Shown here piece by piece: positions 28,432-56,595 of a DNA stretch of 64,000 nt. The first letter of the stretch is position 1; each line of letters starts with the position of its first letter. The notes under the pieces are model-generated. The model was not told the DNA's origin. It saw only the letters and a list, made by a program, of their open reading frames with translations, and searched no databases. Source of the DNA: Pseudomonadota bacterium (lineage in GTDB: Bacteria > Myxococcota_A > UBA9160 > PR03); assembly GCA_003576805.1 (NCBI GenBank), contig QEVM01000013.1, forward strand, positions 1,221-65,220. Reading direction: 5' to 3'. The translations under genes and the position numbers were made by a program.

Positions 28432-29244
28432 CTACGCAGCCACCTCTTGCAAGAATCGCAGCACACTCGCGTTGAACGCGCTGGGATCCTCGGCGTACCC
28501 GATGTGCCCGACGTTCGGGAGCTCGACGAGCGCGGCGTGCGGAAGCCGGCGAGCGAGATCGCGGCCGCCCTCGGGCGGAATCACCAGGTCGCGTCCTCCG
28601 ACGACGACGAGCGCGGGAGCTTCGATTTCGCGACAGCGGTCGGTCCAGTCGAAGCGGCCGAGTCCTTCGACCAGCACCTGCTCGTAGGCGCGCGCGTCGT
28701 TGCGCGCGAGGATGCCGACGAGCCAACGCTGCACGGCCGGGTCGGCCGGCTGCGCGAGCGCCTGGGCCGCGACCAGCTCCGCGTAGCGCTCCATCGGGTC
28801 GCGCCGCAGCACCGCGATCCGCGACTCGACGATGTCGCGCGGGATCGTCATGCGCGCGCTGGTCTGCGCGAGCACGAGGCGGTCCACGCGCGCCGGGTGC
28901 AGCGTCGCCACGACCTGCGCGACGAAGCCGCCCATCGACGCGCCGAGCAGGTGGGCGCGCTCGAGGCCGAGCTGGTCGAGCACCGCCACGACGTCGGCCG
29001 CCATCTCGGCGATCGCGTACGCGCCGGGCGCGGTCGGACGCGACGAGCGGCCGAAGCCGCGCAGGTCGAGCGCGACGAGCCGGAGGTGCGCGCCGAGCGG
29101 CCCGATCTGGTGTTTCCAGAGCGCGGACGAGGTGCCGAGCCCGTGCAGCAGCACGAGCGGCGGGCCGGCGCCCCACTGGCTCACGTGGATGCCGACGTCG
29201 CCGCGCCGCACGCGGACCGACTCCTCGAACGAACCGGGGCTCAT
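28432..29244 (-). CDS. alpha/beta hydrolase, NicD-like (candidate N-formylmaleamate deformylase)
   Basis: ORF trimmed to ATG 29244, which overlaps the upstream stop (ATGA). HGLGTSS oxyanion region, nucleophile elbow GASMGG, C-terminal NVGH. The functional call rests on context with the NicF- and NicX-like genes. Confidence 0.7.
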   Translation of the reverse strand: MSPGSFEESVRVRRGDVGIHVSQWGAGPPLVLLHGLGTSSALWKHQIGPLGAHLRLVALDLRGFGRSSRPTAPGAYAIAEMAADVVAVLDQLGLERAHLLGASMGGFVAQVVATLHPARVDRLVLAQTSARMTIPRDIVESRIAVLRRDPMERYAELVAAQALAQPADPAVQRWLVGILARNDARAYEQVLVEGLGRFDWTDRCREIEAPALVVVGGRDLVIPPEGGRDLARRLPHAALVELPNVGHIGYAEDPSAFNASVLRFLQEVAA

Positions 29245-29894
29245 GCGCGCTCCTCCGCGCGGGCGCCGACCGCCTCGAGGTTCGCGAGCGCCGCGGCGAG
29301 CGCGAGCACGTCGGCGTACTTGGCGTCGAGGTCGAACAGGCTCGCGGCGTGCGGGCCGGCGGCGCGGTCGCCGACGGCCTCGCGCACCACGATCGTGCGG
29401 AAGCCGTGCTGGCAGGCGTCCACCGCCGACGCGCGCACGCAGCCGGACGTCGTGCAGCCCGCGATCAGCAGCGTGTCGATGCGATCGGCCACGAGCGCCG
29501 CCGCGAGCCCCGTGCCGAAGAACGCGCTCGCGCCCTTCTTCACCCACGTCACCTCGTCCGCGCGCGGCGCCAGGCGCGCGTCGACCTCGATCCAGCAGCT
29601 CCCGTGGGTGAGCCAGGCGAGCGACGGGATCTTGCGCACGAACGGTCCGCCTTCGGGCGCGCCGCTCGCGTAGGCGATCGTCGTGAAGTGCACCGGCCAG
29701 CCGCGCGCGCGCGTCGCCGCGAGCAGCTCCTGCGCGGCGGCGACCTCGGCGTCGAGGTTCGCGCCGAGCGGGCAGGCGGGATCGGTGAAGCCGCGGATCA
29801 GGTCGACCAGCAACAGCGCCGGCCGCTCGCCGAAGCCGACGCGGCCCGCCAGCCCGCGCTCGCGGTAGAGCGCGCGCGTCGCGGCCTCGTCCAC
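29241..29894 (-). CDS. isochorismatase-family cysteine hydrolase, NicF-like (candidate maleamate amidohydrolase)
   Basis: GTG start. Triad context LLLVDLIRGF (Asp), VKKGASAFFGT (Lys), IAGCTTSGCVRAS (Cys). The functional call rests on context. Confidence 0.7.
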   Translation of the reverse strand: MDEAATRALYRERGLAGRVGFGERPALLLVDLIRGFTDPACPLGANLDAEVAAAQELLAATRARGWPVHFTTIAYASGAPEGGPFVRKIPSLAWLTHGSCWIEVDARLAPRADEVTWVKKGASAFFGTGLAAALVADRIDTLLIAGCTTSGCVRASAVDACQHGFRTIVVREAVGDRAAGPHAASLFDLDAKYADVLALAAALANLEAVGARAEERA

Positions 29895-29895
29895 G

Positions 29896-32247
29896 CTAGA
29901 CGCTCCGCTGCGCGGCGAGCGCGAGCACGCGCTCGGGCGAGAGCGGCAGCTCGCAGGCGCGCACGCCGAGCGCGTCGCCCACCGCGTTGGCGAGCGCGCC
30001 GAAGGGCGCGATCGCGCCGCCCTCGCCGGCGCCCTTGAAGCCGCCCGGCACGAGCGGCGACGGCGTCTCGACGTGCCCGATCTCGATGAACGGCACGTCG
30101 GCCGCGCTCGGCAGCAGGTAGTCCATGAGCGAGCTGGTGAGGATCTGGCCGGCGTCGTCGTAGAGGATGTGCTCGAGCATGGCGCCGCCGAGGCCCTGCG
30201 CGACGCCGCCCGTGATCTGTCCGTCCACGACCATCGGATTGATCATCTTCCCGCAGTCCTCGACGACGATGTAGCGGAGGATGTCCACCTTGCCGGTCTG
30301 CACGTCCACCTCCACCACCGCGACGTGCGTCGCGTTCGGGAAGGTGACCGGCGGCGGGTCCCAGTACGTCGTCTGGTCGAGGCCGGGCTCCTCGCCCGCG
30401 GGCAGCTCGGCGGCCGCCGTGAAGATCGCGCGCTTGGCGAGCGCGGAGATCTCGATGTAGCGCGCCGGCGCGCCGCGCAGCTGCGCGCGGCCGCCCACGA
30501 GCTCGATCTCCTCGGGCGCGACCTCGAGGAAGTGGCCGGCGACGCGCTTCAGCTTGCTCGCCAGCTTGCGGCCCGCCAGCGTGATCGCGCCGCCGGCGGT
30601 GACGGCGCCGCGGCTGCCCCAGGTGCCCCAGCCGTACGGCGACTCGCGCGTGTCGCCGAGCCGCACCGCGATGCGCTCCATCGGGATGCCGAGCTCGTCG
30701 GACGCGATCTGCGCGTAGACCGTCTCGTGCGCCTGGCCCTCCGAGTGGGTGCCGCAGAACAGCGTCACGTCGCCCGACGGCTCGATGCGGATGTTGACGG
30801 ACTCGTACGCGGACATCGGGACGCCGATGCCGTACCAGTACTTCGAGCCGAGCGCGGTGATCTCGTTGTAACAGGAGAAGCCGATGCCGCGGTACACGCC
30901 GCGCGCGCGCAGCTCCGCCTGCTCCTTGCGGAACGCCTGGTAGTCGGCCGCGACGGCGGCCTTCTCGAGGCACTCGACGTAGCTGCCGATCTCGTACTCC
31001 ATGCCCGTCACCGAGCGGTACGGGAACTCCTCGGGCCGCAGCAGATTGCGGCGGCGGATCTCGACCGGGTCGAGCCCGAGCGCGGCGGCGCCCTCGTCGA
31101 GCAGGCCCTCCATCACGAAGGTGCCGATCGGCGCGCCGACGCCGCGGTAGACGCTGAGCGTGCTCTTGTTGGTCGCGACCGAGGACGCGCTGAACGCGTA
31201 GGTCTGGAAGCGGTACGGCCCGGGGAGCATCTGCGCCATGTGCAGCACTTCGAAGGCGGAGGTCCACGGGAACGCGCTGTAGGCGCCGATGTCGGCGAGC
31301 GCCTTCACGCGCGCCGCGAGGATCTGGCCGTCGGCGTCGAGGGCGATCTCGGCGTCGACGATCTCCTCCTTGGCGTGGAACGAGCTGATCAGGCTCTCGC
31401 GCCGGTCCTCGAGCCAGCGCACCGGGCGGCCGAGCTTCATCGCCATCGCCGCGACCACCGCCTCCTCCGGGAAGAAGTGGCACTTCAAGCCGAAGCCGCC
31501 GCCGACGTCGGGCGCGATCACGCGCACCTTGTTCTCGGGATGGCCGAGGTGCTCGGCGAGCTTGGTGCGCACCATGTGCTGCATCTGCGACGAGGTCCAC
31601 AGCGTCAGCTCGCCGGAGACGCGCTCGTAGTGCGCGAGGCAGCCGCGCGTCTCGAGCGGCAGCGCGTGATGGCGGCCGGTGCGGAAGCGCCGGCGCACCA
31701 CCGCCTTGGCGCGCGCGAACGCGCCGTCGACGTCGCCGCTCGCGAAGTCGGTGTGGCACAGCACGTTGTCGCCCCACTCGTCGTGCACCAGGTTCGTGCG
31801 GTCGGCGAGCGCGGCCTCGGGATCCACCACCGCCGGCAACGGCTCGAGATCGACCTCGACGAGCGCGGCGGCGTCCTCGGCGACGTAGCGGTTGGTCGCG
31901 GCGACCGCGACGATCGCCTCGCCCGCCCAGCGCACCTTGCCGCTCGCGAGCGGCGTCCAGGCGCACGGCTTGTAGGTCGGGTTCTTCTCCGGATCGAGGT
32001 CGGCGCGCAGCGGCGCGAGCCGGTCGGCGAGGTCGCTCCACGCGAAGACCGCCTCGACGCCCGGCAGCGCGCGCGCGGCGGCGGTGTCGATCGCTCGCAG
32101 CTTCGCGTGCGCGTGCGTGCTGCGCAGGAACGCGACCTCGAGCATGCCCGGCATCGACATGCCGCCGAGGTAGCGGCCTTCGCCGAGCAGGTAGCGCGCG
32201 TCCTCGACGCGCTTCACGCGGGCGCCCACGAGCTTGCCGGTCGTCAT
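29896..32247 (-). CDS. xanthine-dehydrogenase-family molybdopterin-binding large subunit (L1, no adjacent FAD/FeS partners)
   Basis: ORF trimmed to ATG 32247 (AGGAG upstream). VKRVEDARYLLGEG, DVGGGFGLKCHFFPEE, VYRGVGAP and FKGAGEGG blocks. 783 aa. Confidence 0.9.
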   Translation of the reverse strand: MTTGKLVGARVKRVEDARYLLGEGRYLGGMSMPGMLEVAFLRSTHAHAKLRAIDTAAARALPGVEAVFAWSDLADRLAPLRADLDPEKNPTYKPCAWTPLASGKVRWAGEAIVAVAATNRYVAEDAAALVEVDLEPLPAVVDPEAALADRTNLVHDEWGDNVLCHTDFASGDVDGAFARAKAVVRRRFRTGRHHALPLETRGCLAHYERVSGELTLWTSSQMQHMVRTKLAEHLGHPENKVRVIAPDVGGGFGLKCHFFPEEAVVAAMAMKLGRPVRWLEDRRESLISSFHAKEEIVDAEIALDADGQILAARVKALADIGAYSAFPWTSAFEVLHMAQMLPGPYRFQTYAFSASSVATNKSTLSVYRGVGAPIGTFVMEGLLDEGAAALGLDPVEIRRRNLLRPEEFPYRSVTGMEYEIGSYVECLEKAAVAADYQAFRKEQAELRARGVYRGIGFSCYNEITALGSKYWYGIGVPMSAYESVNIRIEPSGDVTLFCGTHSEGQAHETVYAQIASDELGIPMERIAVRLGDTRESPYGWGTWGSRGAVTAGGAITLAGRKLASKLKRVAGHFLEVAPEEIELVGGRAQLRGAPARYIEISALAKRAIFTAAAELPAGEEPGLDQTTYWDPPPVTFPNATHVAVVEVDVQTGKVDILRYIVVEDCGKMINPMVVDGQITGGVAQGLGGAMLEHILYDDAGQILTSSLMDYLLPSAADVPFIEIGHVETPSPLVPGGFKGAGEGGAIAPFGALANAVGDALGVRACELPLSPERVLALAAQRSV

Positions 32248-32290
32248 GTCGTTCGCTCCTGCTGCTGATTCGAGAGAGTTCGAAACGCGC

Positions 32291-32320
32291 ATTCTCCGTG
32301 CATCGAACGAGGCACGTCAA
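32291..32320 (-). promoter_or_regulatory. sigma70-like promoter candidate for the L1 / nicF-like / nicD-like operon
   Basis: On the minus strand TTGACG (32320-32315), 18 nt, GAGAAT (32296-32291), about 45 nt upstream of ATG 32247. Confidence 0.4.
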
Positions 32321-32333
32321 GCGCACCAGCAAG

Positions 32334-32371
32334 CTCGCGACTATTCGCGAGGCTTCGTGAATAGTCGCGAG
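32334..32371. promoter_or_regulatory. perfect 13-bp inverted repeat (candidate operator) centred between divergent promoters
   Basis: CTCGCGACTATTC-gcgaggcttcgt-GAATAGTCGCGAG. Exactly 13 nt separate it from the -35-like hexamer on each side. Confidence 0.55.
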
Positions 32372-32384
32372 CGTCGTTGCGGGG

Positions 32385-32414
32385 TTGACTCGCCGCGAAC
32401 GAGCGATTCACAAT
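32385..32414 (+). promoter_or_regulatory. sigma70-like promoter candidate for the Rieske / nicX-like operon
   Basis: TTGACT (32385-32390), 18 nt, CACAAT (32409-32414), about 80 nt upstream of the proposed TTG start at 32493. Confidence 0.4.
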
Positions 32415-32492
32415 GCACGCGTCGCATCGCGCAGCGCGCGCGATCGGCAGCAGCTCTCCAAGCGAAGCCTCCAAGCCCGAGGAGCTCGAACG

Positions 32493-33683
32493 TTGACGGC
32501 CGCCACGCATCGCCCTTCCGCTCCGACGACACTCGACTTCAGCGGCATTCGCGCCGACCTGCTGCACGCGCGGCATCTGCCGGGACGCTTCTACACGTCG
32601 CCGGAGATCTTCGAGCTCGAGATCGAGCGCCTGTTCCTGCGCGAATGGATCTGTGTAGGCCGCGTCGAGCAGTACCAGAAGGCGGGCGACTACCGCGCGC
32701 TGCGCATCGCCAACGAGCCGCTCGTCGTCGTGCGCGACGAGCAGGGCAACCTGAACGCCTTCGCCAACGTGTGCGCGCACCGCGGCGTCGAGGTCGTGAC
32801 GGGCGAGGGCAACGTCGACCGCTTCACCTGCCCGTACCACGCCTGGGTCTACAAGCTCGACGGCACGCTCGCCGGCGCGCCCTACAGCAAGGACGTCGAG
32901 GGCTTCGACTGGAAGAGCTGCCGGCTGCCGCGGCTGCGGCTCGACACCTGGGGCGGCTACGTGTTCGTGAACTTCGACCCGGACGCGGCGGAGCTCGGCG
33001 CCTTCCTCGACGACGACCGCATCCGCGAGGTGGCGGGCTTCCTGCACCCGGAGCGCACGCGTCTCGCGGACGAGTACAGCTTCGAGGTCGACTGCAACTG
33101 GAAGTTCATTCCCGAGAACCTGATGGACATGTATCACGTGGGTGTCATCCACGCGAAGTCCTTCGGCGCGTACTTCCCGGTGAAGAACTTCGACTACCGG
33201 CTCACCAAGTGGGGCTACCACGCGGAGTACGAGAGCCTGACGATGGCGCCCGACGGCGCGCGCCTGTTCGAGACGATGGAGTGGCTGAAGGAGAAGCCGG
33301 AGTACTTCGCCTTCACCTTCTTCTTCCGGCCGGGCTTCAACATGTTCGCGCGGCCCGACATGCTCCAGCCCTGGATCACGCACCCGATCTCGCCGAACAA
33401 GACGCGCGTCACGATCTACACGCAGTATCCGGAAGGGCACTTCTCGATGCCTGCGTTCGCGCAGAAGCACGACCTGGTGAAGGAGTTCATCCGGCTCGTG
33501 GCGAACGAGGACCTCGCGATGCTGCGCTCGCTGCAGAACGGCGTCGGCTCGCGCGCCTTCGTGCCGGGCCCGACGGTGAAGCTCGAGAAGGCGATCCATC
33601 ACATGCTGAACCGCTACCTCGACCGGATGTTCGGCCCGGAGGCGAAGGCCGTGGACGCCGCCGAGCTCGCCGGGCGGGCCTAG
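32493..33683 (+). CDS. Rieske non-heme iron oxygenase, alpha subunit
   Basis: Rieske motif CAHRGVEV...CPYHAW and mononuclear-iron motif NLMDMYHVGVIH (DxxHxxxxH). Start placed at TTG 32493, 8 nt after GAGGAG. The ORF track start at 32385 is itself the -35-like TTGACT. Confidence 0.85.
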   Translation: MTAATHRPSAPTTLDFSGIRADLLHARHLPGRFYTSPEIFELEIERLFLREWICVGRVEQYQKAGDYRALRIANEPLVVVRDEQGNLNAFANVCAHRGVEVVTGEGNVDRFTCPYHAWVYKLDGTLAGAPYSKDVEGFDWKSCRLPRLRLDTWGGYVFVNFDPDAAELGAFLDDDRIREVAGFLHPERTRLADEYSFEVDCNWKFIPENLMDMYHVGVIHAKSFGAYFPVKNFDYRLTKWGYHAEYESLTMAPDGARLFETMEWLKEKPEYFAFTFFFRPGFNMFARPDMLQPWITHPISPNKTRVTIYTQYPEGHFSMPAFAQKHDLVKEFIRLVANEDLAMLRSLQNGVGSRAFVPGPTVKLEKAIHHMLNRYLDRMFGPEAKAVDAAELAGRA

Positions 33684-33691
33684 GAGGAACG

Positions 33692-34726
33692 ATGCCGCGC
33701 GCGGGTACCAACATGGTGGAGCTGTTCCGCGAGGAGCTCGAGCTGTGCGGCGTCGGCCCCGGCGAACGCGTGGCCGTGCTCTCCGAGGGCGACCAGCTCC
33801 GCGACTACGCGGAAGCCTTCCTCACCGCGGCGCGCGCGCTCGGCGCCGACGTCGAGGACGTGAACCTGCGCTCCGACGGCGCGAAGAGCGCGAGCGAGCG
33901 CATCGCGCACCTCGGCAAGAACTCGCTCACGGGCGATCGCGCCGCGATGGAGACGCTGAAGGCCGCCGACCTCGTCGTCGACCACATGCTGCTGCTCTTC
34001 TCGCGCGAGCAGATCGAGATCCAGGAGGCCGGCACGCGCATGCTGCTGGTGGTCGAGCCCTTCGAGGTCCTCGAGCGGCTCTTCCCGAGCGAGGACCTGC
34101 GCCGGCGCGTCGAGGCGGGCGAGGCGCGGCTCGCGAAGGCGCGCACGCTGCGCTTCACCAACGCCGCGGGCACCGACGTCACCTATCAGCTCGGCGAGCG
34201 CCCGATCCTCACCGAGTACGGCTACACCGACACGCCCGGGCGTTGGGACCACTGGCCGGGCGGCTTCCTCTCGACGATCGGCGCGAAGGGGCGCGGCGAA
34301 GGGCGCGTCGTGATGGACCGCGGCGACATCGTGTACCCGCACAAGCGCATGCTCGGGGAGCCGGTGGAGTTCGTGGTGCGCGACGGCGCGGTCGCCGACA
34401 TCCGCGGCGGCGCCGAGGCGGCGGAGCTGCGCAAGTTCATGGAGTCGTACCAGGACCCGCGCGCCTACGCGCTCTCGCACATCGGCTGGGGCCTCAACGA
34501 CCGCTGCGAGTGGACGGTCGAGCGGCCCGGCATCGGGATGGACGGCCGCGCCTACTACGGCAACGTGCTGTTCTCGCTCGGGCCGGACACCGAGTTCGGC
34601 GGCGACAACGACACCGAGTGCCACCTCGACCTGCCGATGCGGCGCTGCTCGCTGTGGCTCGACGACGAGCTGATCGTGAAGGACGGCGAGGTCATCCCCG
34701 AAGACATGCGCGCGCCGGGTCGCTGA
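33692..34726 (+). CDS. nicX: 2,5-dihydroxypyridine 5,6-dioxygenase-like (NicX / M29-aminopeptidase-fold family)
   Basis: TAGGAGGAACG-ATG. Blocks AADLVVDHMLLLFSREQIEIQEAGTRMLLVVEPFEVLERLFPSED, EYGYTDTPGRWDHWPGGF, SHIGWGL, GRAYYGNVLFSLGP and CHLDLPMRRCSLWLDD agree with my recollection of Pseudomonas putida NicX. Confidence 0.75.
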   Translation: MPRAGTNMVELFREELELCGVGPGERVAVLSEGDQLRDYAEAFLTAARALGADVEDVNLRSDGAKSASERIAHLGKNSLTGDRAAMETLKAADLVVDHMLLLFSREQIEIQEAGTRMLLVVEPFEVLERLFPSEDLRRRVEAGEARLAKARTLRFTNAAGTDVTYQLGERPILTEYGYTDTPGRWDHWPGGFLSTIGAKGRGEGRVVMDRGDIVYPHKRMLGEPVEFVVRDGAVADIRGGAEAAELRKFMESYQDPRAYALSHIGWGLNDRCEWTVERPGIGMDGRAYYGNVLFSLGPDTEFGGDNDTECHLDLPMRRCSLWLDDELIVKDGEVIPEDMRAPGR

Positions 34727-34743
34727 GAGCCGAACGCCGACGC

Positions 34744-36018
34744 ATGCGCGCTCTTCCGGTCGCACGGTCGCTCGCCGCGCTGGCGGGCGCCGCGCTCGCA
34801 GCATTCGCCAGCGGCGCCGCCGGCGCCGACGGCGACGTGCTGGAGGTGGAGCTGCGCCACCCGCCAGCGCGCAGCGAGGTCGACTCCGGCAAGGACGCCT
34901 TCGTCGCGGGCAGCGCCTTCGTGCGGCTCTCCGCCGAGAACGGCGTCGACGTCGTGATCGCGATCGACACCTCGACCTCCGCCGGCGCCGACATGGGCGT
35001 CGACCTCGACGGCGACGGCCGCGTCGAGACGCGCTTCGCGGGACCCGACTCGGTGCTCACCGCCGAGATCCGCGCCGCGGACGAGTGCCTCCAGCTCTTC
35101 GAGGGCGCGGGCGTGCGCGCCGGGCTGGTGCGCTTCGCGGGCGATCCGGCGTCGTATCCGGGCATCCCGCAGTACTTCGAGCCGCCGCCCGAGGCCACGA
35201 TCGTGTCGGAGGTGACCGACGACGTCGCGTCGGTGCGGCGCCGGCTCGCCGGACTCGCGCAGCCGGAGCCCGCCGGGCGCACCAACTTCGTCGCGGCGCT
35301 CGAGCACGCGTGGGAAGCGTTCCCGGCGCGCCGCGGCAAGCGACACCGCGCCGTGATGCTGCTCACCGACGGCACCGCGACGGGCCCGGCCGCGACGCCC
35401 GCCGAGAACGTCGACGCGACGCTCGCGGCGATGCGGCGCTTCGTCGACGCCGGCGTCCAGGTGCACACCTTCGCGATCGGCACCGGCGCGCTCGCGAACC
35501 CGGTGCTGGTGATGCAGATGGCGGACATGACGGGCGGCTTCTTCACGCCCGTCGAGAACCTCGCCGAGCTGGTCGAGCTGGCGCGCCGCGTGGCGGCCAC
35601 CAACGTCGCCGACGTGTCGGTGCGCAACCGCACCACCGGCCAGGCCGCGCGCAATCTCTACCTCAGCCGCGACGGCGAGTTCGGCGCCGACGTGCCGGTG
35701 CGCGCGGGCGAGAACGTGATCCAGGTGACCGCCGCCGCGCGCGGCGGCGCGACGCGCACCCGCGAGATCGTGGTGGTCGGCCGGCCGGGCGCGCGCGCGC
35801 CGCGCGTGCCGCCGGGGCTGCGCGAACTGGAGAAGGGCGTCATGGCCGAGCGCCTCGACCGCCTGCGCGAGCGCACCGAGCAGTTGCGCGAGAAGCTGCG
35901 CCAGCAGATGGTCGTCGAGATGGAACGGCAGCGCGAGCGCACGCGGCAGCGCAAGGAGCTCGAGCTGCGCGTCCAGAAGGAGCGGCCCGAGCGCGCGCCG
36001 CGCGCGGACGCGCCGTGA
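34744..36018 (+). CDS. secreted von Willebrand factor A (VWA) domain protein with C-terminal coiled coil
   Basis: Signal peptide MRALPVARSLAALAGAALAAFASGAAGA. MIDAS DTSTS ... LLTDGTAT. The tail ERLDRLRERTEQLREKLRQQMVVEMERQRERTRQRKELELR is heptad-like and charged. Confidence 0.75.
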   Translation: MRALPVARSLAALAGAALAAFASGAAGADGDVLEVELRHPPARSEVDSGKDAFVAGSAFVRLSAENGVDVVIAIDTSTSAGADMGVDLDGDGRVETRFAGPDSVLTAEIRAADECLQLFEGAGVRAGLVRFAGDPASYPGIPQYFEPPPEATIVSEVTDDVASVRRRLAGLAQPEPAGRTNFVAALEHAWEAFPARRGKRHRAVMLLTDGTATGPAATPAENVDATLAAMRRFVDAGVQVHTFAIGTGALANPVLVMQMADMTGGFFTPVENLAELVELARRVAATNVADVSVRNRTTGQAARNLYLSRDGEFGADVPVRAGENVIQVTAAARGGATRTREIVVVGRPGARAPRVPPGLRELEKGVMAERLDRLRERTEQLREKLRQQMVVEMERQRERTRQRKELELRVQKERPERAPRADAP

Positions 36019-37436
36019 CGCCGCCGGGCGCCGACGACGCGCTGCTGCTCGCGCCGCTCGCCGAGGTCGCGGAGCGGCTGCGCACGCGCCGCCTCTCGCC
36101 GGTGGAGCTCACGGCCGCGGTGCTCGCGCGCATCGAGCGGCTCGATCCGGCGCTGCGCGCCTTCGTCACGGTGACGCCCGAGCGCGCGCTCGCGGCGGCG
36201 CGCGAGGCGGAGTCGGCGATCGCGAGCGGCCGCTGGCGCGGGCCGCTGCACGGCGTGCCGGTGTCGCTGAAGGATCTCTTCGACGTGCGCGGCGTGCGCA
36301 CCAGCGCGGGCTCGCGCTTCCTCGCCGAGCACGTCGCGCAGGACGACTCCGCCGTCGCGGCGCGCCTCGAGGCGGCCGGCGCCGTGCTCGTCGGCAAGGC
36401 GAACTTGCACGAGTTCGCGTACGGAACGACCTGCGACTCGACGATCGCCGGCGCGATCCGCAATCCGTGGAAGCGCGACGCGATCCCCGGCGGCTCGAGC
36501 GGCGGCTCGGGCGCGGCGGTCGCCGCCGGGCTCGGCTTCGCGTCGATCGGCACCGACACCGGCGGCTCGGTCCGCATCCCGGCGGCGTGCTGCGGCGTGG
36601 TGGGCCTGAAGCCCACGTTCGGGCGCATCAGCCGGCACGGCCTGGTGCCGCTCGCGCCGTCGCTCGACCACGTCGGGCCGCTGACGCGCACCGTGCACGA
36701 CGCCGCGCTCGTCTTCGCCGCGCTGGCGGGACACGACCCGCGCGACCCGGACTCGCTCGCGGCGCCGGTGCCCGATCTCGCGCAGGCGGCCGGCCGCGGC
36801 GTGCGCGGGCTGCGCCTCGGCATCCTCGACACGACGCTCGAGTCCGCGTCGAGCGAAGTCGCGGCTGCGGTCGGCGTCGCGGCCGAGCGGCTGCGCGGCG
36901 CCGGCGCGGAGCTGCGCCGCGTCTCGCTCGCGACGCTCGAGTCCGTGCGTCACGCCGCCTTCGTGATGCTGTTCGCCGAGTCGCTCGCGACGCACCGCGC
37001 GCGCTTCGAGAGCGAGCCCGAGCGCTTCTTCCCCGACGTGCGCGCCCGCTTCGAGCGCGCGCTCCCGCTCAGCGCCGTCGACTACGTCGCCGCGCTCGAG
37101 GCGCGGCGCGCGGGCGCGGCCGAAGCGCTGCGCGCGCTCGCCGAGGTGGACGCGCTCGTCACGCCGACGCTGCCCACCGGCGCCGCGCCGTGCGGCGCGA
37201 CGCAGGTCGCAGTCGACGAGCGCGCGGTCGACGTCGCCGTCGCGAACACGCTGTACACGCGCGAGTGGAACGTGCTCGGCTTCCCCGCGCTCTCGGTGCC
37301 GTGCGGCTTCACCGGCGACGGCCTCCCGATCGGCATGCAGCTCGTCGCGCGGCCCTGCGACGAGGCGACGCTGGTGCGCGCCGGCGCGGAGTATCAGCGG
37401 CTCACGGACTGGCACGCGCGCGCGCCGGCCTTGTGA
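36015..37436 (+). CDS. amidase-signature family amidase
   Basis: GTG 36015 overlaps the upstream stop (GTGA). GGSSGGSGAAVAAGLGFASIGTDTGGSVRIPA amidase signature, Lys in VSLKDLF. Confidence 0.9.
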   Translation: MTPPGADDALLLAPLAEVAERLRTRRLSPVELTAAVLARIERLDPALRAFVTVTPERALAAAREAESAIASGRWRGPLHGVPVSLKDLFDVRGVRTSAGSRFLAEHVAQDDSAVAARLEAAGAVLVGKANLHEFAYGTTCDSTIAGAIRNPWKRDAIPGGSSGGSGAAVAAGLGFASIGTDTGGSVRIPAACCGVVGLKPTFGRISRHGLVPLAPSLDHVGPLTRTVHDAALVFAALAGHDPRDPDSLAAPVPDLAQAAGRGVRGLRLGILDTTLESASSEVAAAVGVAAERLRGAGAELRRVSLATLESVRHAAFVMLFAESLATHRARFESEPERFFPDVRARFERALPLSAVDYVAALEARRAGAAEALRALAEVDALVTPTLPTGAAPCGATQVAVDERAVDVAVANTLYTREWNVLGFPALSVPCGFTGDGLPIGMQLVARPCDEATLVRAGAEYQRLTDWHARAPAL

Positions 37437-38692: not shown

Positions 38693-39037
38693 TTGTTGTT
38701 CGCGGTCATCATCGACGAAGCATCGGCGAATGGTCACGACGCGATCGCGAAATATCGCGATGCGCGGCGCGCCCTGCTCGAAAGCCTGCAGAAGCGCGGG
38801 ATCTTGCTGTTCGAGGGGACGCTCGGCGACTCCGGCAGCATGATGATCCTCGAGGCCGAGTCGACCAACGACGTCCTGCACGTCCTCCAGCGGGATCCCA
38901 CGGTGATCCTGCCCTTTCCCAACCGCGTCGTGATCCGACCGCTCACCGTGAACGTGGTCGGCGATTGGTCGGCGCTCACCGGGTCCGTCCATCCCGCCGT
39001 GGCGTCCGCCGCCACGCGAGGAGTCACCACCTCTTGA
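38693..39037 (+). CDS. YciI-like family protein
   Basis: Start placed at TTG 38693, 7 nt after GGAG. The in-frame upstream part of ORF 38423 has only about 50% GC3, versus over 90% downstream. FAVIID...ARRALLESLQKRGILLFEGTLGDSGSMMILEAES...LQRDP fits the YciI pattern. Confidence 0.6.
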   Translation: MLFAVIIDEASANGHDAIAKYRDARRALLESLQKRGILLFEGTLGDSGSMMILEAESTNDVLHVLQRDPTVILPFPNRVVIRPLTVNVVGDWSALTGSVHPAVASAATRGVTTS

Positions 39038-39576
39038 AGCTCGAGATCAGCTCCGAAGTCCTCCCGCATCCGCCGCAGCAGGTGTGGAACCTGCTGCTCG
39101 ATCCGACGGTGCTCTCGCGCCTGCTGCCCGGCGTCGAGAAGTTCGACGCGGTCGGGCCGGACTCCTACGAGGTCGTCGTGAAGCTCGGCGTCGGCGCCGT
39201 GCGCGGCACCTACAACGGCAAGGTCCAGCTCACCGACCAGCAGCCGCCGTCCAGCTACAAGCTGAAGGGCGAGGGCAAGGGCGCGCCGGGCTGGGCCAAG
39301 GGCGAAGTGCTCTTCAGCCTGATCCCCGAAGCGGGCGGCACGCGGGTCAACGCCAAGGCGGACGCGCAGATCGGCGGCGCGATCGCCGGCGTGGGCCAGC
39401 GCATGATCGAGGGCGTCGCCAAGAGCATGGCGCGCGAGTTCTTCTCCGCGGTCGGGCGCGAGCTCGCCGGACAGAAAGTGCAGGTGAGCCAGGCCGGCAT
39501 GGGCTTTCGGCTCTTCATCCGCATCGTCCGCGACTTCTTCGCCTGGCTCTTCGGGCGCGGAGCCGGAGCGAAGTGA
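39034..39576 (+). CDS. CoxG-like SRPBCC protein
   Basis: TTG 39034 overlaps the upstream stop (TTGA), with AGGAG upstream. (M)KLEISSEVLPHPPQQVWNLLLDPTVLSRLLPGVEKFD...GGAIAGVGQRMIEGVAKSMAREFF matches the CoxG family. The C-terminal tail is hydrophobic and amphipathic. Confidence 0.8.
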   Translation: MKLEISSEVLPHPPQQVWNLLLDPTVLSRLLPGVEKFDAVGPDSYEVVVKLGVGAVRGTYNGKVQLTDQQPPSSYKLKGEGKGAPGWAKGEVLFSLIPEAGGTRVNAKADAQIGGAIAGVGQRMIEGVAKSMAREFFSAVGRELAGQKVQVSQAGMGFRLFIRIVRDFFAWLFGRGAGAK

Positions 39577-39625
39577 ATGAGGCTCTCGACCATCGAATCG
39601 CTGTCGACCAGGAGGTGACGTCCGC

Positions 39626-40495
39626 ATGAAGCCGCCGGCTTTCGATTACGTCTGCGCCCGCTCGCTCGACGAGGCGATCGACGCCCTCGGGCGCCGCCCG
39701 GGCGAGGCGAAGATCCTGGCGGGAGGCCAGAGCCTCACGCCGATGCTGAACTTCCGGCTCGCGCACCCGGGCATGCTCGTCGACATCAACCGCATCCCGG
39801 GCATCGACGCGATCCGCGACGACGACGGCGGCGTGCGCATCGGCACGCTCGCGCGCCACCGCGCGATCGAGGTGAGCGACTCGATCCGCAAGAAGTTCCC
39901 GATCCTGACCGCCGCCGCCGCGCACGTCGGCCATCTCGCGATCCGCAACCGCGGCACCTTCGGCGGCAGCATCGCGCACGCCGATCCGGCCGCGGAGTGG
40001 CCGATGCTGGCGCTGCTGCTCGACGCGCAGATCGAAGCGAAGGGTCCGCAGGGCGCGCGCACGATCCCGGCGCGCGAGTTCTTCACGACCTTCCTCACCA
40101 CTGCGCTCGGCGACGCCGAGATCCTCACCGAGGTGAAGCTGCCGGCCCTGCCGGCGAAGACGGGCTGGGGCTTCGAGGAGCTCTCGCGCCGGCCCGGCGA
40201 CTTCGCGCTCGCGGCGGTCGCGGCGATCGTCACGCTCGACGGCAAGACGATCAAGGACGCGCGCATCTCGATGGGCGGCGTCGGCGGCACGCCGCTGCGC
40301 GCGCCCGGCGCCGAGGCGCTGCTGCGCGGCAAGCCCGCGGACGCGGCGCTCTTCGAGCAGGCCGGCAAGAAGGCGGCCGAGGAGTCGGATCCGTCCAACG
40401 ACGTGCACGCCACCGCCGACTACCGGCGCCACCTGGTGTCGGTGCTCACTCGCCGCGCGCTCACGAGCGCCGCCGAGAAGGCCGCGCAGGGTTGA
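39626..40495 (+). CDS. XDH-family FAD-binding medium subunit (CoxM-like), set 1
   Basis: 289 aa. KILAGGQSLTPMLNFRL, IRNRGTFGGSIAHADPAAEWP and a C-terminal CO_deh_flav-like domain. Confidence 0.9.
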   Translation: MKPPAFDYVCARSLDEAIDALGRRPGEAKILAGGQSLTPMLNFRLAHPGMLVDINRIPGIDAIRDDDGGVRIGTLARHRAIEVSDSIRKKFPILTAAAAHVGHLAIRNRGTFGGSIAHADPAAEWPMLALLLDAQIEAKGPQGARTIPAREFFTTFLTTALGDAEILTEVKLPALPAKTGWGFEELSRRPGDFALAAVAAIVTLDGKTIKDARISMGGVGGTPLRAPGAEALLRGKPADAALFEQAGKKAAEESDPSNDVHATADYRRHLVSVLTRRALTSAAEKAAQG

Positions 40496-40529
40496 TCCAG
40501 CGAACCATCCGAGGGGAGCACATCCGAAC

Positions 40530-41012
40530 ATGAGCGCGAAGCACAAGATCTCCGTCACGCTGAACGGCAAGAAGATCGAGCGCGAGGTCGAGCCGCGGCT
40601 GCTGCTCGGCGACTTCCTGCGCGAGGAGATCGGGCTCCTCGGCGTGCACCACGGCTGCGAGCAGGGCGTGTGCGGCGCCTGCACGATCCTGCTGAACGGC
40701 GACAGCGTGCGCGCCTGCCTGATGTTCGCCGTGCAGGCGGACGGCGCCGAGATCACCACCGTCGAGGGCATCGGCGAGCCCGGCAACCTGCACCCGCTCC
40801 AGCAGAGCTTCTGGGATCACCACGCGCTGCAGTGCGGCTTCTGCACGCCCGGCATGCTGCTCACCTCGATCGACCTGATCAAGAAGTACCCGCTCGAGAA
40901 CGACGAGCAGATCCGCCACGGCCTCTCCGGGAACATCTGCCGCTGCACCGGCTACCAGAACATCGTGACGGCGGTCCGCGAGGCCGCACCGGGACTGCGC
41001 GCCGCGAAGTAG
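40530..41012 (+). CDS. XDH-family (2Fe-2S)-binding small subunit (CoxS-like), set 1
   Basis: 160 aa. CEQGVCGACTIL and QCGFCTPGML...CRCTGY cluster motifs. Confidence 0.93.
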   Translation: MSAKHKISVTLNGKKIEREVEPRLLLGDFLREEIGLLGVHHGCEQGVCGACTILLNGDSVRACLMFAVQADGAEITTVEGIGEPGNLHPLQQSFWDHHALQCGFCTPGMLLTSIDLIKKYPLENDEQIRHGLSGNICRCTGYQNIVTAVREAAPGLRAAK

Positions 41013-41033
41013 CGCGAAGGGAACGGCGACGAC

Positions 41034-41917
<884 letters not shown>

Positions 41918-41921
<4 letters not shown>

Positions 41922-43195
41922 GCGACGCCGCGCGCCCGGTGTGGCTGCAGCTCGCCTCGCGCGAGACGGACCTCGTCGCGGCGGTCGTCGGCTTCGGGCG
42001 GCTGCTGCGCCAGTGGGGCGTGCAGCTCCACGCGGGCGCGTCGCTGGTCGCGCTCGAGACGCTGCGCGTGATCGACCTCGAGCGCCGCGAGGACTTCCGC
42101 TTCGCGCTGTGCGCGGCGCTCGTGCACCGCCCCGAGGACCGCCCGCTCTTCGACTACCTCTTCAACTCGTACTGGGCGACCGGCGCCGACCGCCTCGCGC
42201 CGCCGGCCAACGAGGGCCTCGCGAACCGCCCGGTCGACGCCAAGCGGCTCGGCCGCGACGTGCCCACCGAAGACTCCGTCGAGGGCTCGATCGGGAGCTT
42301 CCGCCCGCTCGGCTCGTCGCTCGGACTCTCGCCCGACGACGGCGACGAGTCCACCGACGTGCGCTCGGCGCGCCGCGGCCGCGTCGTCGAGATGGCGGAC
42401 GACGCCGCGGGCGGCGCGGCGCGCGCCGAGCTCGAGCGCGTGGCGACGCGGCTCTCGAGCGTGCTCGCGACGCGGCCGTCGCGCCGGCGCCGTCCCGACC
42501 GCTTCGGCCCGATCGTCGATCCGCGCGCCACGCTGCGCGCGAGCCTGCACCAGGGCGGCATCCCGATCGAGCTGCGCCGCCAGCGCCGCCGCATCGCGCG
42601 CCCCCGCCTCGTGCTCTTCTGCGACGTCAGCCGCTCGATGGACGAGCACGCGTCGCTGCTGCTCGAGTTCTCGGCCGCCGTGCTGCGCCGCTTCTGGCAG
42701 GTCGAGGTGTTCCTGTTCGCGAGCCGGCTGGTGCGCGCGCGCTCGACGTGGAGCGAGCGCACCCTGCCCGAGCTGCGCCGCATGATGCCGGAGTGCGGCG
42801 GCGGCACGCAGATCGGCGCGGCGCTCGCCGAGTTCCTCGACGGCTACGGGGCCGCGCTGCTCGGGCCGGCCACCGTCTCGCTGATCCTCTCGGACGGCCT
42901 CGACGCCGGCGAGCCCGACGTGCTCGCGCGCGCCATGGAGCGCCTCGCGCGCCACTCGCGCGCGGTGATCTGGCTGAACCCGCTGCTCGCGCAGAGCGGC
43001 TACGAGCCGCGCGCGCGCGGCATGGCGGCGGCGCTGCCGTACGTCGACCTGTTCGCCCCGATCCGCGACGCGCGCTCGCTGTGGGAGCTGCTCGAGCGCC
43101 TGCGCGCGGCGTCGGGCTCGCGGCGCAATCGGGGCTTCGCGATTCGAGCCGGCGCGTCCGAGCTCGACGCGACGCAACACACGGGAGCGATCTAG
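41918..43195 (+). CDS. VWA domain protein (CoxE-like), copy 1
   Basis: ATG 41918 overlaps the upstream stop (ATGA). LVLFCDVSRSM MIDAS, ILSDGLDAGE and IWLNPLL blocks typical of the VWA_CoxE family. Confidence 0.85.
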
Positions 43196-46714: not shown

Positions 46715-49066
46715 ATGCCGACCGCCGGACCGTTCGGAGCAGCCGTCAAGCGAGTGGAGGACCCGCGCTTCCTGGTGGGCCAGACCTCGTTCGTGGAGGG
46801 CATGGTCCTCCCCAACATGCTCTCCGTCGCCTTCCTGCGCAGCCCGTACGCGCACGCGAAGATCCGGTCGATCGACGTCTCGAAGGCGCTCGCGCTCCCC
46901 GGCGTGGTGCGCGTCCTGACCGGCGAAGAGGCGATCAAGCGCTGCAAGCCGATCCGCGTCGAGTGGAAAGAGTCGAAGTTCGAGGTCGACTTCAAGCCCT
47001 GCGACTACCCGGCGATCGCGGTCGAGCGCACGCGCCACGTCGGCGAGATCGTCGCCGCCGTCGTGGCCGAGAACCGCTACCTCGCCGAGGACGGCGTCGA
47101 GCTGATCGAGGTGGAATGGGAGCCGCTGCCGGCCGTCGTCGATCCGGAGAAGGCGCTCGAGAAGGGCGGCACGCTCGTGCACGAGGAGTGGGGCGACAAC
47201 GTGATGCTCCACTCGCACATCCGCGGCGGCGACGTCGAGGGCGCCTTCCGGCAGGCGGACGTGGTCGTGAAGGGCCGCTTCGCGATGAACCGCCACTGCG
47301 CGGCGCCGATGGAGGGCCGCGCGGTCGTCGCCAACTACGACGCCGCCCAGAACGGCATGACCGTCTGGACCTCGACGCAGATGCCGCACATGGTGCGCAC
47401 CAAGATCGCCGAGGCGCTCGACTACCCCGAGCACCGCATCCGCGTGATCGGCCCCGACGTGGGCGGCGGCTTCGGCCTCAAGTGCCACATCTTCCCGGAG
47501 GAGCTGGCGCTCTCCCTGCTCACGCTCGACGTGAAGCGCCCGCTCAAGTGGGTCGAGGACCGCCGCGAGAACCTGTACGGCTCGTACCACGCCAAGGACG
47601 ACATCTGCTACGCCGAGCTCGCCGTCAAGAACGACGGCACCATCCTCGGCCTCAAGACGAAGTTCATCGGCGACGTCGGCGCCTACACCTCGTACCCCTG
47701 GACGCCGTCCTTCGAGCCGCTGCAGGCGGCGATGGCGGTGCCGGGTCCGTACAAGATCCACCACGTCCACTGCGAGGCGCTCGCGGTCGCCACCAACAAG
47801 ACCACGTCGAGCGTGTACCGCGGCGTCGGCCTGCCCGCCGCGCAGTACACGATGGAGCACATCCTCGACCTCGCGGCGGCGAAGATCGGGATGGACCCCG
47901 CCGAGATCCGGCGCAAGAACATCATGAAGTCGTCGGACTTCCCGGTGACGTCGGTGACCGGCCTCTACTACGACAGCGCGACGCCGCTCGAGTCGCTCGA
48001 CATGGCGCTCGAGATGATCAAGTACCCCGAGTTCCGCAAGGAGCAGGAGGCCGCGCGCAAGCAGGGCAAGTACCTCGGCATCGGCATCAGCGCGATGATC
48101 GAGATGACCACCTTCGGCTTCGAGTACTGGCGCGCCGCGGGCCTGAAGAGCGTGACCGGCTACGACTCGGCGCACCTGCGCGTCGACCCGAACGGCGGCG
48201 TGACGCTCACGGTCGGCACCTTCAACCACGGCCAGGGACACCCGACGGCGTACGCCCAGCTCGTCGCGGACGGCATCGGCTGCAAGATCGAGGACGTCAC
48301 CTTCATCCAGGGCGACACCCAGATGACGCCGTACGGATGGGGCACCTGGGGCAGCCGCAGCGCGGTCGCCGGCGGCGGCGCCGTGATCAAGGCGTCGGAG
48401 AAGATCCGGGAGAAGATGTTCCGGGTCGCCGCGAACCTGATGGAGGTGTCCGCGCAGGACCTCGAGCTCAAGGACGGCAAGGTCCAGGTGAAGGGCGTGC
48501 CGGGCAAGAGCATGACGATCCGCGAGGTCGCGCAGGCCACCGTGTACACGGCCGACGTGCCCGACGACGACGAGCCGGGCCTCGAGGCCAGCTACTACTA
48601 CAAGGCGCCGACGCCCTACGCGAACTCGACGCACATCGCGGTCGTCGAGGTGGACCCGGAGACCGGGTACACCAAGATCCTGCGCTACGTCGTCACCGAA
48701 GACTGCGGCCGCATGATCAACCCGATGATCGTGGACGGGCAGATCGCCGGCGGCGTGGCGCAGGGCATCGGCCAGGCGATGTTCGAGCACCACCAGTTCG
48801 ACGAGTCGGGCCAGATCCTCACCACCTCGCTGATGGACTACCTGATCCCGTCGTGCGCCGACGTGCCGCCGATGCAGTTCGGCCATCTCGAGACGCCGTG
48901 CCCGATCTCGGTGGGCGGCATCAAGGGCATGGGCGAGGGCGGCGCCGTCGCGCCGCCGCCCGCGATCGCCAACGCGATCGCCGACGCGCTCGCGCCGCTG
49001 GCCGGCTGGAAGCCGATCGGCCGGCTCCCCATGTCGCCGGAAGTGGTGCGCCGCCAGATCGCCTGA
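46715..49066 (+). CDS. XDH-family molybdopterin-binding large subunit (L2, paralog of L1)
   Basis: AGAAGGAG-ttcgag-ATG. VKRVEDPRFLVGQ, DVGGGFGLKCHIFPEE, VYRGVGLP, IKGMGEGG. 783 aa, the same length as L1. Confidence 0.92.
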   Translation: MPTAGPFGAAVKRVEDPRFLVGQTSFVEGMVLPNMLSVAFLRSPYAHAKIRSIDVSKALALPGVVRVLTGEEAIKRCKPIRVEWKESKFEVDFKPCDYPAIAVERTRHVGEIVAAVVAENRYLAEDGVELIEVEWEPLPAVVDPEKALEKGGTLVHEEWGDNVMLHSHIRGGDVEGAFRQADVVVKGRFAMNRHCAAPMEGRAVVANYDAAQNGMTVWTSTQMPHMVRTKIAEALDYPEHRIRVIGPDVGGGFGLKCHIFPEELALSLLTLDVKRPLKWVEDRRENLYGSYHAKDDICYAELAVKNDGTILGLKTKFIGDVGAYTSYPWTPSFEPLQAAMAVPGPYKIHHVHCEALAVATNKTTSSVYRGVGLPAAQYTMEHILDLAAAKIGMDPAEIRRKNIMKSSDFPVTSVTGLYYDSATPLESLDMALEMIKYPEFRKEQEAARKQGKYLGIGISAMIEMTTFGFEYWRAAGLKSVTGYDSAHLRVDPNGGVTLTVGTFNHGQGHPTAYAQLVADGIGCKIEDVTFIQGDTQMTPYGWGTWGSRSAVAGGGAVIKASEKIREKMFRVAANLMEVSAQDLELKDGKVQVKGVPGKSMTIREVAQATVYTADVPDDDEPGLEASYYYKAPTPYANSTHIAVVEVDPETGYTKILRYVVTEDCGRMINPMIVDGQIAGGVAQGIGQAMFEHHQFDESGQILTTSLMDYLIPSCADVPPMQFGHLETPCPISVGGIKGMGEGGAVAPPPAIANAIADALAPLAGWKPIGRLPMSPEVVRRQIA

Positions 49067-56557: not shown

Positions 56558-56595
56558 TCCCAGAGCCCACGATCCCACGGAGCGATTCGAACACC

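Follow-up and report, generated by a model that had tools for sequence, protein, structure and literature searches.

We analysed a 64-kb stretch of DNA (64,000 nucleotides, nt; hereafter the window) from a Pseudomonadota bacterium placed by GTDB in Myxococcota_A (UBA9160; PR03; assembly GCA_003576805.1, contig QEVM01000013.1, positions 1,221 to 65,220 of the forward strand), in which the gene of a Rieske oxygenase alpha subunit directly precedes that of a NicX-type 2,5-dihydroxypyridine (2,5-DHP) dioxygenase. Judging from gene order and protein motifs, the region is a real, coherent cluster for pyridine-ring catabolism, and its Rieske-NicX module is conserved and wholly uncharacterised. We propose, with a probability of about one half, that the cluster serves the degradation of a pyridine-type N-heterocycle via 2,5-DHP and that the latter is made by a molybdenum (Mo) hydroxylase and the Rieske enzyme. 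2,5-DHP is a hub for the mineralisation of nicotinate, nicotine, picolinate and hydroxypyridines, and each known route arrives at it with a hydroxylase of its own, which may be a flavin, a diiron or a Mo enzyme or else PicB, a Rieske oxygenase of four components that is followed by a decarboxylase. An entry into 2,5-DHP through Rieske and Mo enzymes had been considered plausible in an earlier note made from the letters of this DNA, and the idea is much strengthened by the conserved adjacency of the Rieske and nicX genes and by their co-occurrence at the genome level.

NicX and its conserved Rieske neighbour

We found that residues 1-341 of the product of 33692-34726 align with residues 1-349 of the Pseudomonas putida NicX chain (PDB 7cn3; phmmer E 4.8e-88). 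The protein had no match in our local Pfam and NCBIfam libraries and was identified by the PDB sequence search; its precomputed Pfam family is PF26233 (NicX). The Fe(II) ion of NicX is held by His265, Ser302, His318 and Asp320, and Glu177, His189 and Leu104 contact the substrate (PMC7910607). The window protein keeps equivalents of all these residues, as do the 120 database homologues closest to it. Position 105 is occupied by Phe, not His, as in NdpE and in the NicX proteins of the Variovorax and Peribacillus clusters, and the H105F variant of NicX is active (PMC7910607). The gene is present in one copy in the genome and its product shares 45% identity with NdpE. On the strength of its active-site residues, the protein is a genuine NicX homologue and a predicted 2,5-DHP dioxygenase; we found neither a loss of metal ligands nor a grouping with M29 aminopeptidases, the two outcomes that the earlier note had named as speaking against a NicX-like enzyme. 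Among the genomes with related loci, G041, G042, G044, G045 and G047 (reached via L007, L008, L039, L046 and L044) encode two to four NicX paralogues each, 35-68% identical to the window NicX, so that the range of the family may extend beyond a single dihydroxypyridine-type substrate.

Conservation of the Rieske-NicX pair was followed in 45 loci, defined by Rieske orthologues of at least 50% identity and drawn from 43 GTDB species-representative metagenome-assembled genomes (MAGs; one genome per GTDB species) of Alpha- and Gammaproteobacteria and Myxococcota and from two metagenome contigs. NicX follows the Rieske orthologue at a distance of 32-192 nt on the same strand in 34 of the 45 loci, and nine of the ten genomes that lack this adjacency encode a NicX protein (55-68% identity) elsewhere. 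In turn, Marinibaculum pumilum possesses a NicX that is 70% identical to that of the window and no Rieske orthologue (best match 33%). Only one of 40 relatives of the window's genome carries a clear NicX, with the Rieske gene adjoining, while a second relative matches weakly (E 6.5e-5). The Rieske gene depends on NicX, not the reverse, and such one-sided dependence is the pattern expected of one among several alternative enzymes feeding NicX.

The gene context of the pair varies. Gammaproteobacterial loci add genes for CoxG, CoxM, CoxS and a Mo large subunit, a second Rieske protein, an SDR, a DUF3891 protein, an AtzH-like protein, a TetR regulator, a hydrolase and an isomerase; the presence of two Rieske enzymes and a dehydrogenase suggests that the upper pathway is probably longer there than in the window. 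A conserved 12-kb array of gammaproteobacterial MAGs (L030, L032-L034, L036, L038, L042 and L047; e.g., L032:1899-13976) comprises genes for DUF1302, CoxG, CoxM, CoxS, the Mo large subunit, the second Rieske alpha subunit, a small open reading frame (ORF) without a family, the SDR, DUF3891, the AtzH-like protein, the Rieske orthologue, NicX, the hydrolase and an Amdase-type isomerase. Orthologues of the second Rieske protein, DUF3891 and the AtzH-like protein, and of an Amidohydro_2 protein found in alphaproteobacterial loci, were not detected in the window's own genome, which makes the window a minimal version consisting of Mo hydroxylase, Rieske enzyme, NicX and two hydrolases. In a Candidatus Binatia MAG (L110:4966-15986), a 62% identical Rieske homologue is located 4 kb from a LigB-type ring-cleavage dioxygenase, with no NicX in its place, an arrangement that fits a ring hydroxylase preparing cleavage substrates. 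That cluster also includes genes for a Mo large subunit, two Amidohydro_1 proteins, two CN_hydrolases, an MBL-fold protein, a CMD protein, two LigB-type subunits and DmpFG-like proteins.

Gene organization of the window

The genome that holds the window amounts to 5.5 Mb in 422 contigs, with an estimated completeness of 92.8%. As the G+C content of the window is about 72%, genes were placed by third-position GC and ORF structure; they were annotated by Pfam, NCBIfam and PDB sequence searches, and the Pfam scans took in essentially all called genes of the 64 kb. The features are as follows (aa, amino acids; FAD, flavin adenine dinucleotide):

28432-29244, minus strand: alpha/beta hydrolase, 270 aa (Pfam Abhydrolase_1, 2.3e-35)
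29241-29894, minus strand: isochorismatase-family cysteine amidohydrolase, 217 aa (Pfam Isochorismatase, 2.5e-33)
29896-32247, minus strand: Mo-cofactor large subunit L1, 783 aa (Pfam Ald_Xan_dh_C, MoCoBD_1 and MoCoBD_2)
32334-32371: perfect 13-bp inverted repeat, CTCGCGACTATTC ... GAATAGTCGCGAG, between the divergent L1 and Rieske genes, read from the sequence
32493-33683, plus strand: Rieske alpha subunit, 396 aa (Pfam Rieske and Ring_hydroxyl_A)
33692-34726, plus strand: NicX-type 2,5-dihydroxypyridine 5,6-dioxygenase, 344 aa (PDB match 7cn3)
34837-36018, plus strand: VWA-like protein, 393 aa (possible alternative start at 34744)
36015-37436, plus strand: amidase-signature amidase, 473 aa (Pfam Amidase, 4.7e-122)
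39034-39576, plus strand: CoxG/SRPBCC protein (Pfam COXG)
39626-40495, plus strand: FAD-binding medium subunit, CoxM (Pfam FAD_binding_5 and CO_deh_flav_C)
40530-41012, plus strand: 2Fe-2S small subunit, CoxS (Pfam Fer2_2 and Fer2)
41034-43195, plus strand: CoxD-like AAA+ ATPase and CoxE-like VWA maturation factors (Pfam AAA_5/AAA_3 and VWA_CoxE)
46754-49066, plus strand: second Mo large subunit, L2 (Pfam)
49170-50249, plus strand: XdhC (Pfam)

Two operons diverge here, a leftward set headed by L1 and the rightward Rieske-NicX set, and the inverted repeat in the gap between them is a candidate operator. The NicX-like, isochorismatase-family, XDH-family large-subunit and Rieske alpha genes are all present where the earlier note had placed them, and the XDH-family gene does head the divergent leftward operon as described there. 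The alpha/beta hydrolase gene is likewise present; the 371-aa ORF assigned to it, on the other hand, overlaps the isochorismatase gene, and third-position GC puts the start at 29244. The scans of the window revealed no class-A flavin monooxygenase and no Asp/Glu-racemase-type isomerase, and no Rieske beta subunit, ferredoxin or FNR-type reductase. Within the 64 kb, two further statements of the note consequently hold: that a NicC-type flavin monooxygenase and a maleate isomerase are missing, and that the Rieske alpha gene directly precedes nicX with no beta-subunit, ferredoxin or reductase gene nearby.

The two genes downstream of nicX lie within the coordinates covered by that note and are absent from its text. 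The VWA-like protein has no Pfam or NCBIfam match and is 40% identical to the product of a 435-aa gene with faint VWA matches that belongs to the Mo-hydroxylase operon of two related metagenome contigs (L004 and L109); it may act as a cofactor or assembly factor. Four more paralogues of this protein are encoded in the genome (C141, C299, C338 and C283). The start of the amidase gene overlaps the stop of the VWA-like gene, and all NCBIfam matches of the amidase fall below cut-off.

Further to the right, a third, self-contained Mo hydroxylase set (L3-M3-S3) occupies 53328-57075 and is followed, up to 61669, by genes for a zinc-ribbon protein, a cyclase-family protein, a sigma-54 activator and a weak homologue of NCS1-like transporters. 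This region is probably a separate catabolic unit.

The alpha-only Rieske protein

The start of the Rieske gene was placed at TTG 32493, 8 nt after a GGAG motif, which corresponds to the 396-aa database gene call; an alternative TTG at 32385 would give 432 aa. In the PDB its product is matched best by carnitine monooxygenase CntA (6y8j, 5e-42), with an alignment that extends across both domains and retains the Rieske motif CAHRG/CPYHAW (CxH...CxxH), the mononuclear-iron motif DMYHVGVIH (DxxHxxxxH) and the downstream ED. Among NCBIfam models, GbcA scored best (2e-39), with residues 62-258 matched; at 135.2 bits against a curated cut-off of 670, the protein was rejected as an equivalog of GbcA or CntA. 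By sequence, it belongs to the alpha-only class of Rieske oxygenases. CntA and GbcA are homomeric alpha-only enzymes served by one separate reductase, and since this class needs just a reductase, the lack of beta-subunit and ferredoxin genes is normal. No homologue above 39% identity was present in the plasmid collection.

Similarly, the scan of gene families in the related loci turned up no beta subunit, ferredoxin or reductase; a small conserved ORF adjoining a second Rieske gene there has no Pfam match. Elsewhere in the window's genome, contig C358 encodes one protein with an FNR domain and a C-terminal plant-type [2Fe-2S] ferredoxin motif (CxxxxCxxC), which is our candidate for the reductase of the Rieske enzyme.

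The hydroxylation assigned to NicC in the nicotinate pathway seems to have no flavin enzyme here. We found no NicC-like enzyme in the 92.8%-complete genome: its three full-length class-A flavin monooxygenases resemble aklavinone/MhpA-type enzymes and were rejected, as were the hits of a tblastn search with NdpD and a Variovorax NicC-like protein, which reached 27-30% identity at best, apart from one 76-residue fragment of 47%. A Variovorax plasmid cluster combines genes for a Mo large subunit, SRPBCC, FAD and FeS subunits, isochorismatase, hydrolase and NicX with one for an FAD monooxygenase, the latter representing the step for which the window cluster has no flavin enzyme.

The molybdenum hydroxylase

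L1 is matched best by the large subunit of quinoline 2-oxidoreductase (1t3q_B, 2.5e-192). Neither the form I (AYRCSFR) nor the form II (AYRGAGR) signature of CO dehydrogenase occurs in L1, L2 or L3, and the CO dehydrogenase NCBIfam models score below cut-off. The identity of L1 as an aerobic CO dehydrogenase (CoxL) was rejected, as the active-site loop signature is missing; its sequence relationships make it the large subunit of a QorL-like N-heterocycle hydroxylase. In the plasmid collection L1 has no homologue above 47% identity, and its relatives are too distant for a substrate to be named.

In the earlier note L1 was described as an orphan Mo large subunit, a description that did not survive the comparison of related loci. 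The genes of CoxG, the FAD and 2Fe-2S subunits and CoxD/CoxE (39034-43195) are situated 7 kb to the right of L1, and in the two metagenome contigs that carry the closest relatives of the cluster, L004 (NicX 81%, L1 79%) and L109 (Rieske 71%), the corresponding genes form one operon with the L1 orthologue. This operon, which the L1 orthologue heads, further comprises isochorismatase, hydrolase, VWA-like protein, CoxG, CoxM, CoxS and CoxD (in L109 also CoxE), and runs leftward, divergently from Rieske-NicX; its CoxG, CoxM and CoxS proteins are 63-76% identical to those of the window. What the window shows is therefore one unit whose genes have been rearranged, and L1 is the catalytic subunit of a four-component hydroxylase (large subunit, FAD subunit, 2x[2Fe-2S] subunit and SRPBCC protein), and the CoxG/FAD/FeS proteins at 39.0-41.0 kb would be the partners of L1 and possibly of L2. 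L2 is 49% identical to L1, and its orthologue also flanks Rieske-NicX in L004 and L109.

Two details of these contigs concern gene calling. A 236-aa ORF between the VWA-like gene and coxG in both was rejected as a spurious call, given its Arg/Ala-rich, junk-like translation and the lack of a convincing counterpart in the window. The L1 orthologue of L109 (L109:7467-9820) is called as two ORFs (378 and 405 aa), which suggests a frameshift or assembly error in the record.

Enzymes of the lower pathway

The isochorismatase-family protein matches NicF (3ot4/3uao, 1.1e-42) and the P. putida S16-type enzyme (4l07, 2e-42) in the PDB and shares 44% identity with NdpG, a maleamate amidohydrolase. These matches lend support to the NicF-type role suggested in the earlier note, and the protein is probably a maleamate amidohydrolase of the NicF/NdpG type. 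It belongs to the N-carbamoylsarcosine amidase/maleamate amidohydrolase subfamily, in which both activities occur.

The alpha/beta hydrolase had been called NicD-like, and here the result is different: it does not group with the characterised deformylases. It shares 19-26% identity with the NicX-adjoining hydrolases of Variovorax and Peribacillus, which are 30-43% identical to one another and to NdpF, and in both NCBIfam and the PDB it is matched best by 3-oxoadipate enol-lactonases of the PcaD type, in no case above cut-off. We found, in turn, 50% identity over 254 aa with the hydrolase encoded directly after NicX in gammaproteobacterial MAG loci, and the alignment of the two displays a GxSxG nucleophile elbow (GASMG) and a C-terminal His. 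The family is represented in 21 of the 45 clustered loci, the window included. Because it is linked to NicX in other genomes, a deformylase role stays plausible, and the protein is probably a non-orthologous N-formylmaleamate deformylase.

The maleate isomerase, absent from the window, came to light in a genome-wide search. It is encoded on another contig (C360:12049-12822) by the sole Amdase-family gene of the genome, whose product scored best against EutA/arylmalonate-decarboxylase NCBIfam models before it was compared with NdpH, to which it is 62% identical over 234/234 residues; identity with the product of the gene after the hydrolase in gammaproteobacterial loci is 56%. It is probably a maleate isomerase, unlinked rather than missing from the genome. 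On the same contig, the gene of a fourth XDH-family large subunit (793 aa) precedes two short Amidohydro_2 genes and one for a GNAT protein (C360:1100-4964, locus L108); the isomerase homologue lies about 7 kb beyond these genes and adjoins a Crp-family regulator. The C360 region may constitute a second N-heterocycle module.

Proposed pathway and alternative explanations

In the route that we propose, the QorL-like four-component Mo hydroxylase (L1 with the CoxG, FAD and FeS subunits), matured by CoxD/E and XdhC, would add a water-derived hydroxyl beside the ring nitrogen. The alpha-only Rieske monooxygenase, with electrons from the unlinked FNR-[2Fe-2S] reductase, would then add a second, O2-derived hydroxyl to give 2,5-DHP, thereby doing the job of NicC, HspB, HpaM or HpdABCDE in known pathways. 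NicX would open the ring of 2,5-DHP to yield N-formylmaleamate, from which the alpha/beta hydrolase would remove formate; the isochorismatase-family enzyme would convert maleamate to maleate, and the unlinked isomerase would turn the latter into fumarate. The sequences themselves establish what NicX, the Rieske protein, the Mo subunits and the NicF-type hydrolase are and that their catalytic motifs are intact, together with the joint operon of L1 and CoxG/M/S in relatives and the conserved Rieske-NicX pair; the order of the hydroxylations, the Rieske product, the deformylase and the reductase are inferred. Candidate starting substrates are pyridine/2-hydroxypyridine and nicotinate/6-hydroxynicotinate, and the Rieske enzyme might hydroxylate 6-hydroxynicotinate in a decarboxylative ipso reaction or 2-pyridone at C5. 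More speculatively, given that no reductase gene travels with the Rieske gene in any locus, the enzyme may take two electrons from the neighbouring Mo hydroxylase, which would couple both hydroxylations by redox.

Several observations weigh against this route. L1 and its medium and small subunits are encoded on opposite strands of the window, 7 kb apart, and L2 could use the same CoxG/FAD/FeS partners. Many alphaproteobacterial loci place Rieske-NicX together with ABC transporters and an Amidohydro_2 protein and have no Mo enzyme within 10 kb; such a protein would fit a PicB/PicC-like hydroxylation followed by decarboxylation. All Rieske homologues of at least 54% identity come from MAGs or metagenomes, bear generic names only and are uncharacterised, and the substrates of the nearest characterised relatives, CntA and GbcA, are quaternary amines, which undergo C-N cleavage or N-demethylation without attack on a ring carbon, so that a role of the Rieske protein as an N-demethylase is possible. 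In the lower pathway, the best solved match of the isochorismatase-family protein is 26st (one of a recent set of five entries), deposited as N-carbamoylsarcosine amidohydrolase (1e-71) and much closer than NicF; it is the genomic context that favours maleamate as the substrate. The alpha/beta hydrolase, in turn, resembles the deformylase NdpF at 33% identity over just about 80 aa around the nucleophile elbow, and as its matches to NdpF and the hydrolases of Variovorax and Peribacillus are partial and of 19-33% identity, it was rejected as a NicD/NdpF orthologue.

The relationship to CntA and GbcA leads to the explanation that the Rieske protein works upstream as a CntA/GbcA/Stc2/Ndm-type N- or O-demethylase on an N-methylpyridinium or methoxypyridine compound (trigonelline-like, or an N-methyl-pyridone metabolite), with 2,5-DHP produced by the Mo hydroxylase(s) or in one step from N-methyl-2,5-DHP through demethylation. 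CntA is indeed the closest solved relative, aligned across both domains, and GbcA the top NCBIfam model; both are alpha-only and depend on one separate reductase, as is apparently the case in the window. The amidase of the same operon would be able to handle a carboxamide side chain, and an MttB-family methyltransferase gene is found near one alphaproteobacterial locus. Yet the GbcA score (135 bits against 670) derives from the N-terminal half alone, the tight and nearly universal link of the Rieske gene is to NicX and not to a Mo hydroxylase or formaldehyde-handling genes, and the Binatia homologue lies near a LigB-type extradiol dioxygenase, for which reasons we regard a demethylase as unlikely. 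A homarine/trigonelline route was considered and rejected: according to its abstract, the published homarine pathway yields N-methylglutamate and glutamate, 2,5-DHP goes unmentioned there, and the word Rieske is absent from the paper (PMC13236597).

A picolinate-type route, in which the Mo enzyme forms a 6-hydroxy pyridine-carboxylate, the Rieske enzyme hydroxylates it in the manner of PicB and a separate decarboxylase yields 2,5-DHP, seems improbable to us. The pic cluster follows the same logic (Mo enzyme PicA, Rieske oxygenase PicB, PicC and PicD/E/F), and several alphaproteobacterial loci carry an Amidohydro_2 gene (the PicC family) 4 kb downstream of Rieske-NicX. However, PicB depends on four components, one of them a small oxygenase subunit, whereas the Rieske protein is alpha-only and, compared by component makeup, stands in the window as an alpha subunit alone. 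The window also has no Amidohydro_2 gene, and the best match in the genome to the alphaproteobacterial protein is 28% identical. It is very improbable that the Mo hydroxylase alone makes 2,5-DHP from 3-hydroxypyridine (3HP), like HpdA, with the Rieske enzyme acting elsewhere or widening the substrate range. The 3hpd cluster does combine a four-component Mo dehydrogenase, having a separate SRPBCC subunit, with adjacent maleamate genes, and the window, L004 and L109 each encode these four types of component. Such an explanation leaves the Rieske-NicX linkage in 34 of 45 loci unaccounted for, many of them without a Mo hydroxylase within 10 kb, and the phosphoenolpyruvate (PEP)-utilising and pyruvate-phosphate-dikinase genes reported as essential for 3HP conversion there did not turn up in the general scans of the window. 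The conversion to 2,5-DHP by Mo hydroxylase and Rieske enzyme remains the explanation that we prefer.

Comparison with known systems

We found the most direct precedents in the pic and 3hpd clusters. The earlier note had drawn its parallel from quinoline catabolism (Qor and OxoO), a looser analogy and not the closest precedent for the cluster. In Alcaligenes faecalis JQ135 the pic cluster encodes the Mo dehydrogenase PicA, the Rieske oxygenase PicB and PicC, then PicD/E/F/G; PicB converts 6-hydroxypicolinate to 3,6-dihydroxypicolinate and requires its large and small subunits, a ferredoxin and a reductase (bioRxiv 10.1101/530550). Similar to the window, a Mo hydroxylase and a Rieske enzyme precede a NicX-type dioxygenase and maleamate hydrolases, and in some pic organisms the maleate isomerase is unlinked, as in the window's genome. 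In contrast to the four-component PicB, the window protein is alpha-only, CntA-like and without a nearby redox partner; moreover, a PicC-type decarboxylase is not found in the window, and its Mo enzyme has a separate CoxG/SRPBCC subunit. In full-text literature searched for Rieske together with 2,5-dihydroxypyridine or maleamate, the pic preprint was the sole description of a Rieske enzyme upstream, a Rhodococcus survey not being covered.

In the 3hpd cluster of Ensifer adhaerens HP1, HpdA1-A4 constitute a four-component Mo dehydrogenase with a stand-alone SRPBCC protein, encoded beside maleamate genes, and PEP-utilising and pyruvate-phosphate-dikinase genes are reported to be essential for 3HP conversion (bioRxiv 10.1101/2020.01.08.898148). 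The sections covered list no Rieske protein among the 3hpd components, and the likeness of the window to HpdA is one of gene architecture only. The nic cluster of P. putida KT2440 (NicAB, NicC, NicX, NicD, NicF and NicE) has NicX, a NicF-type enzyme and the logic of the lower pathway in common with the window. Unlike it, the window's genome has no NicC, its isomerase is unlinked, its alpha/beta hydrolase is not orthologous (as tested against NdpF), and in place of the two-subunit NicAB with cytochrome c domains there is a QorL/CoxLMS-like hydroxylase. As for the ndp nicotine cluster on a plasmid of Sphingobium fuliginis KK22, NdpE is 45% identical to the window NicX, NdpG 44% to the isochorismatase-family protein and NdpH 62% to the C360 isomerase; there, however, 2,5-DHP is formed by the flavin enzyme NdpD, and NdpF is not the counterpart of the window hydrolase. 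Finally, CntA and GbcA are closest to the Rieske protein by sequence and share its alpha-only makeup and its Rieske and 2-His-1-carboxylate motifs, but the scores lie far below cut-off and the context is that of pyridine-ring cleavage, not quaternary-amine metabolism.

Relative to these systems, the gene content of the window differs in its alpha-only, CntA-like Rieske gene placed directly before nicX, without a decarboxylase or NicC and with a non-orthologous hydrolase. We tentatively suggest, as a proposal whose chances fall somewhat short of even, that the alpha-only Rieske family is the dedicated 2,5-DHP-forming hydroxylase, neither flavin- nor diiron-dependent, of a widespread environmental pyridine pathway in uncultured Alpha- and Gammaproteobacteria, Myxococcota and Binatia. 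The Rieske-NicX module, known from at least 45 loci, has no cultured or characterised member, and the cluster offers a testable case of non-orthologous deformylase replacement. If the Rieske protein does make 2,5-DHP, it would represent a new enzyme class for that step, and the turnover of pyridine rings would become assignable in many aquatic and soil MAGs in which these genes are now annotated as 'leucyl aminopeptidase' and 'aromatic ring-hydroxylating dioxygenase'.

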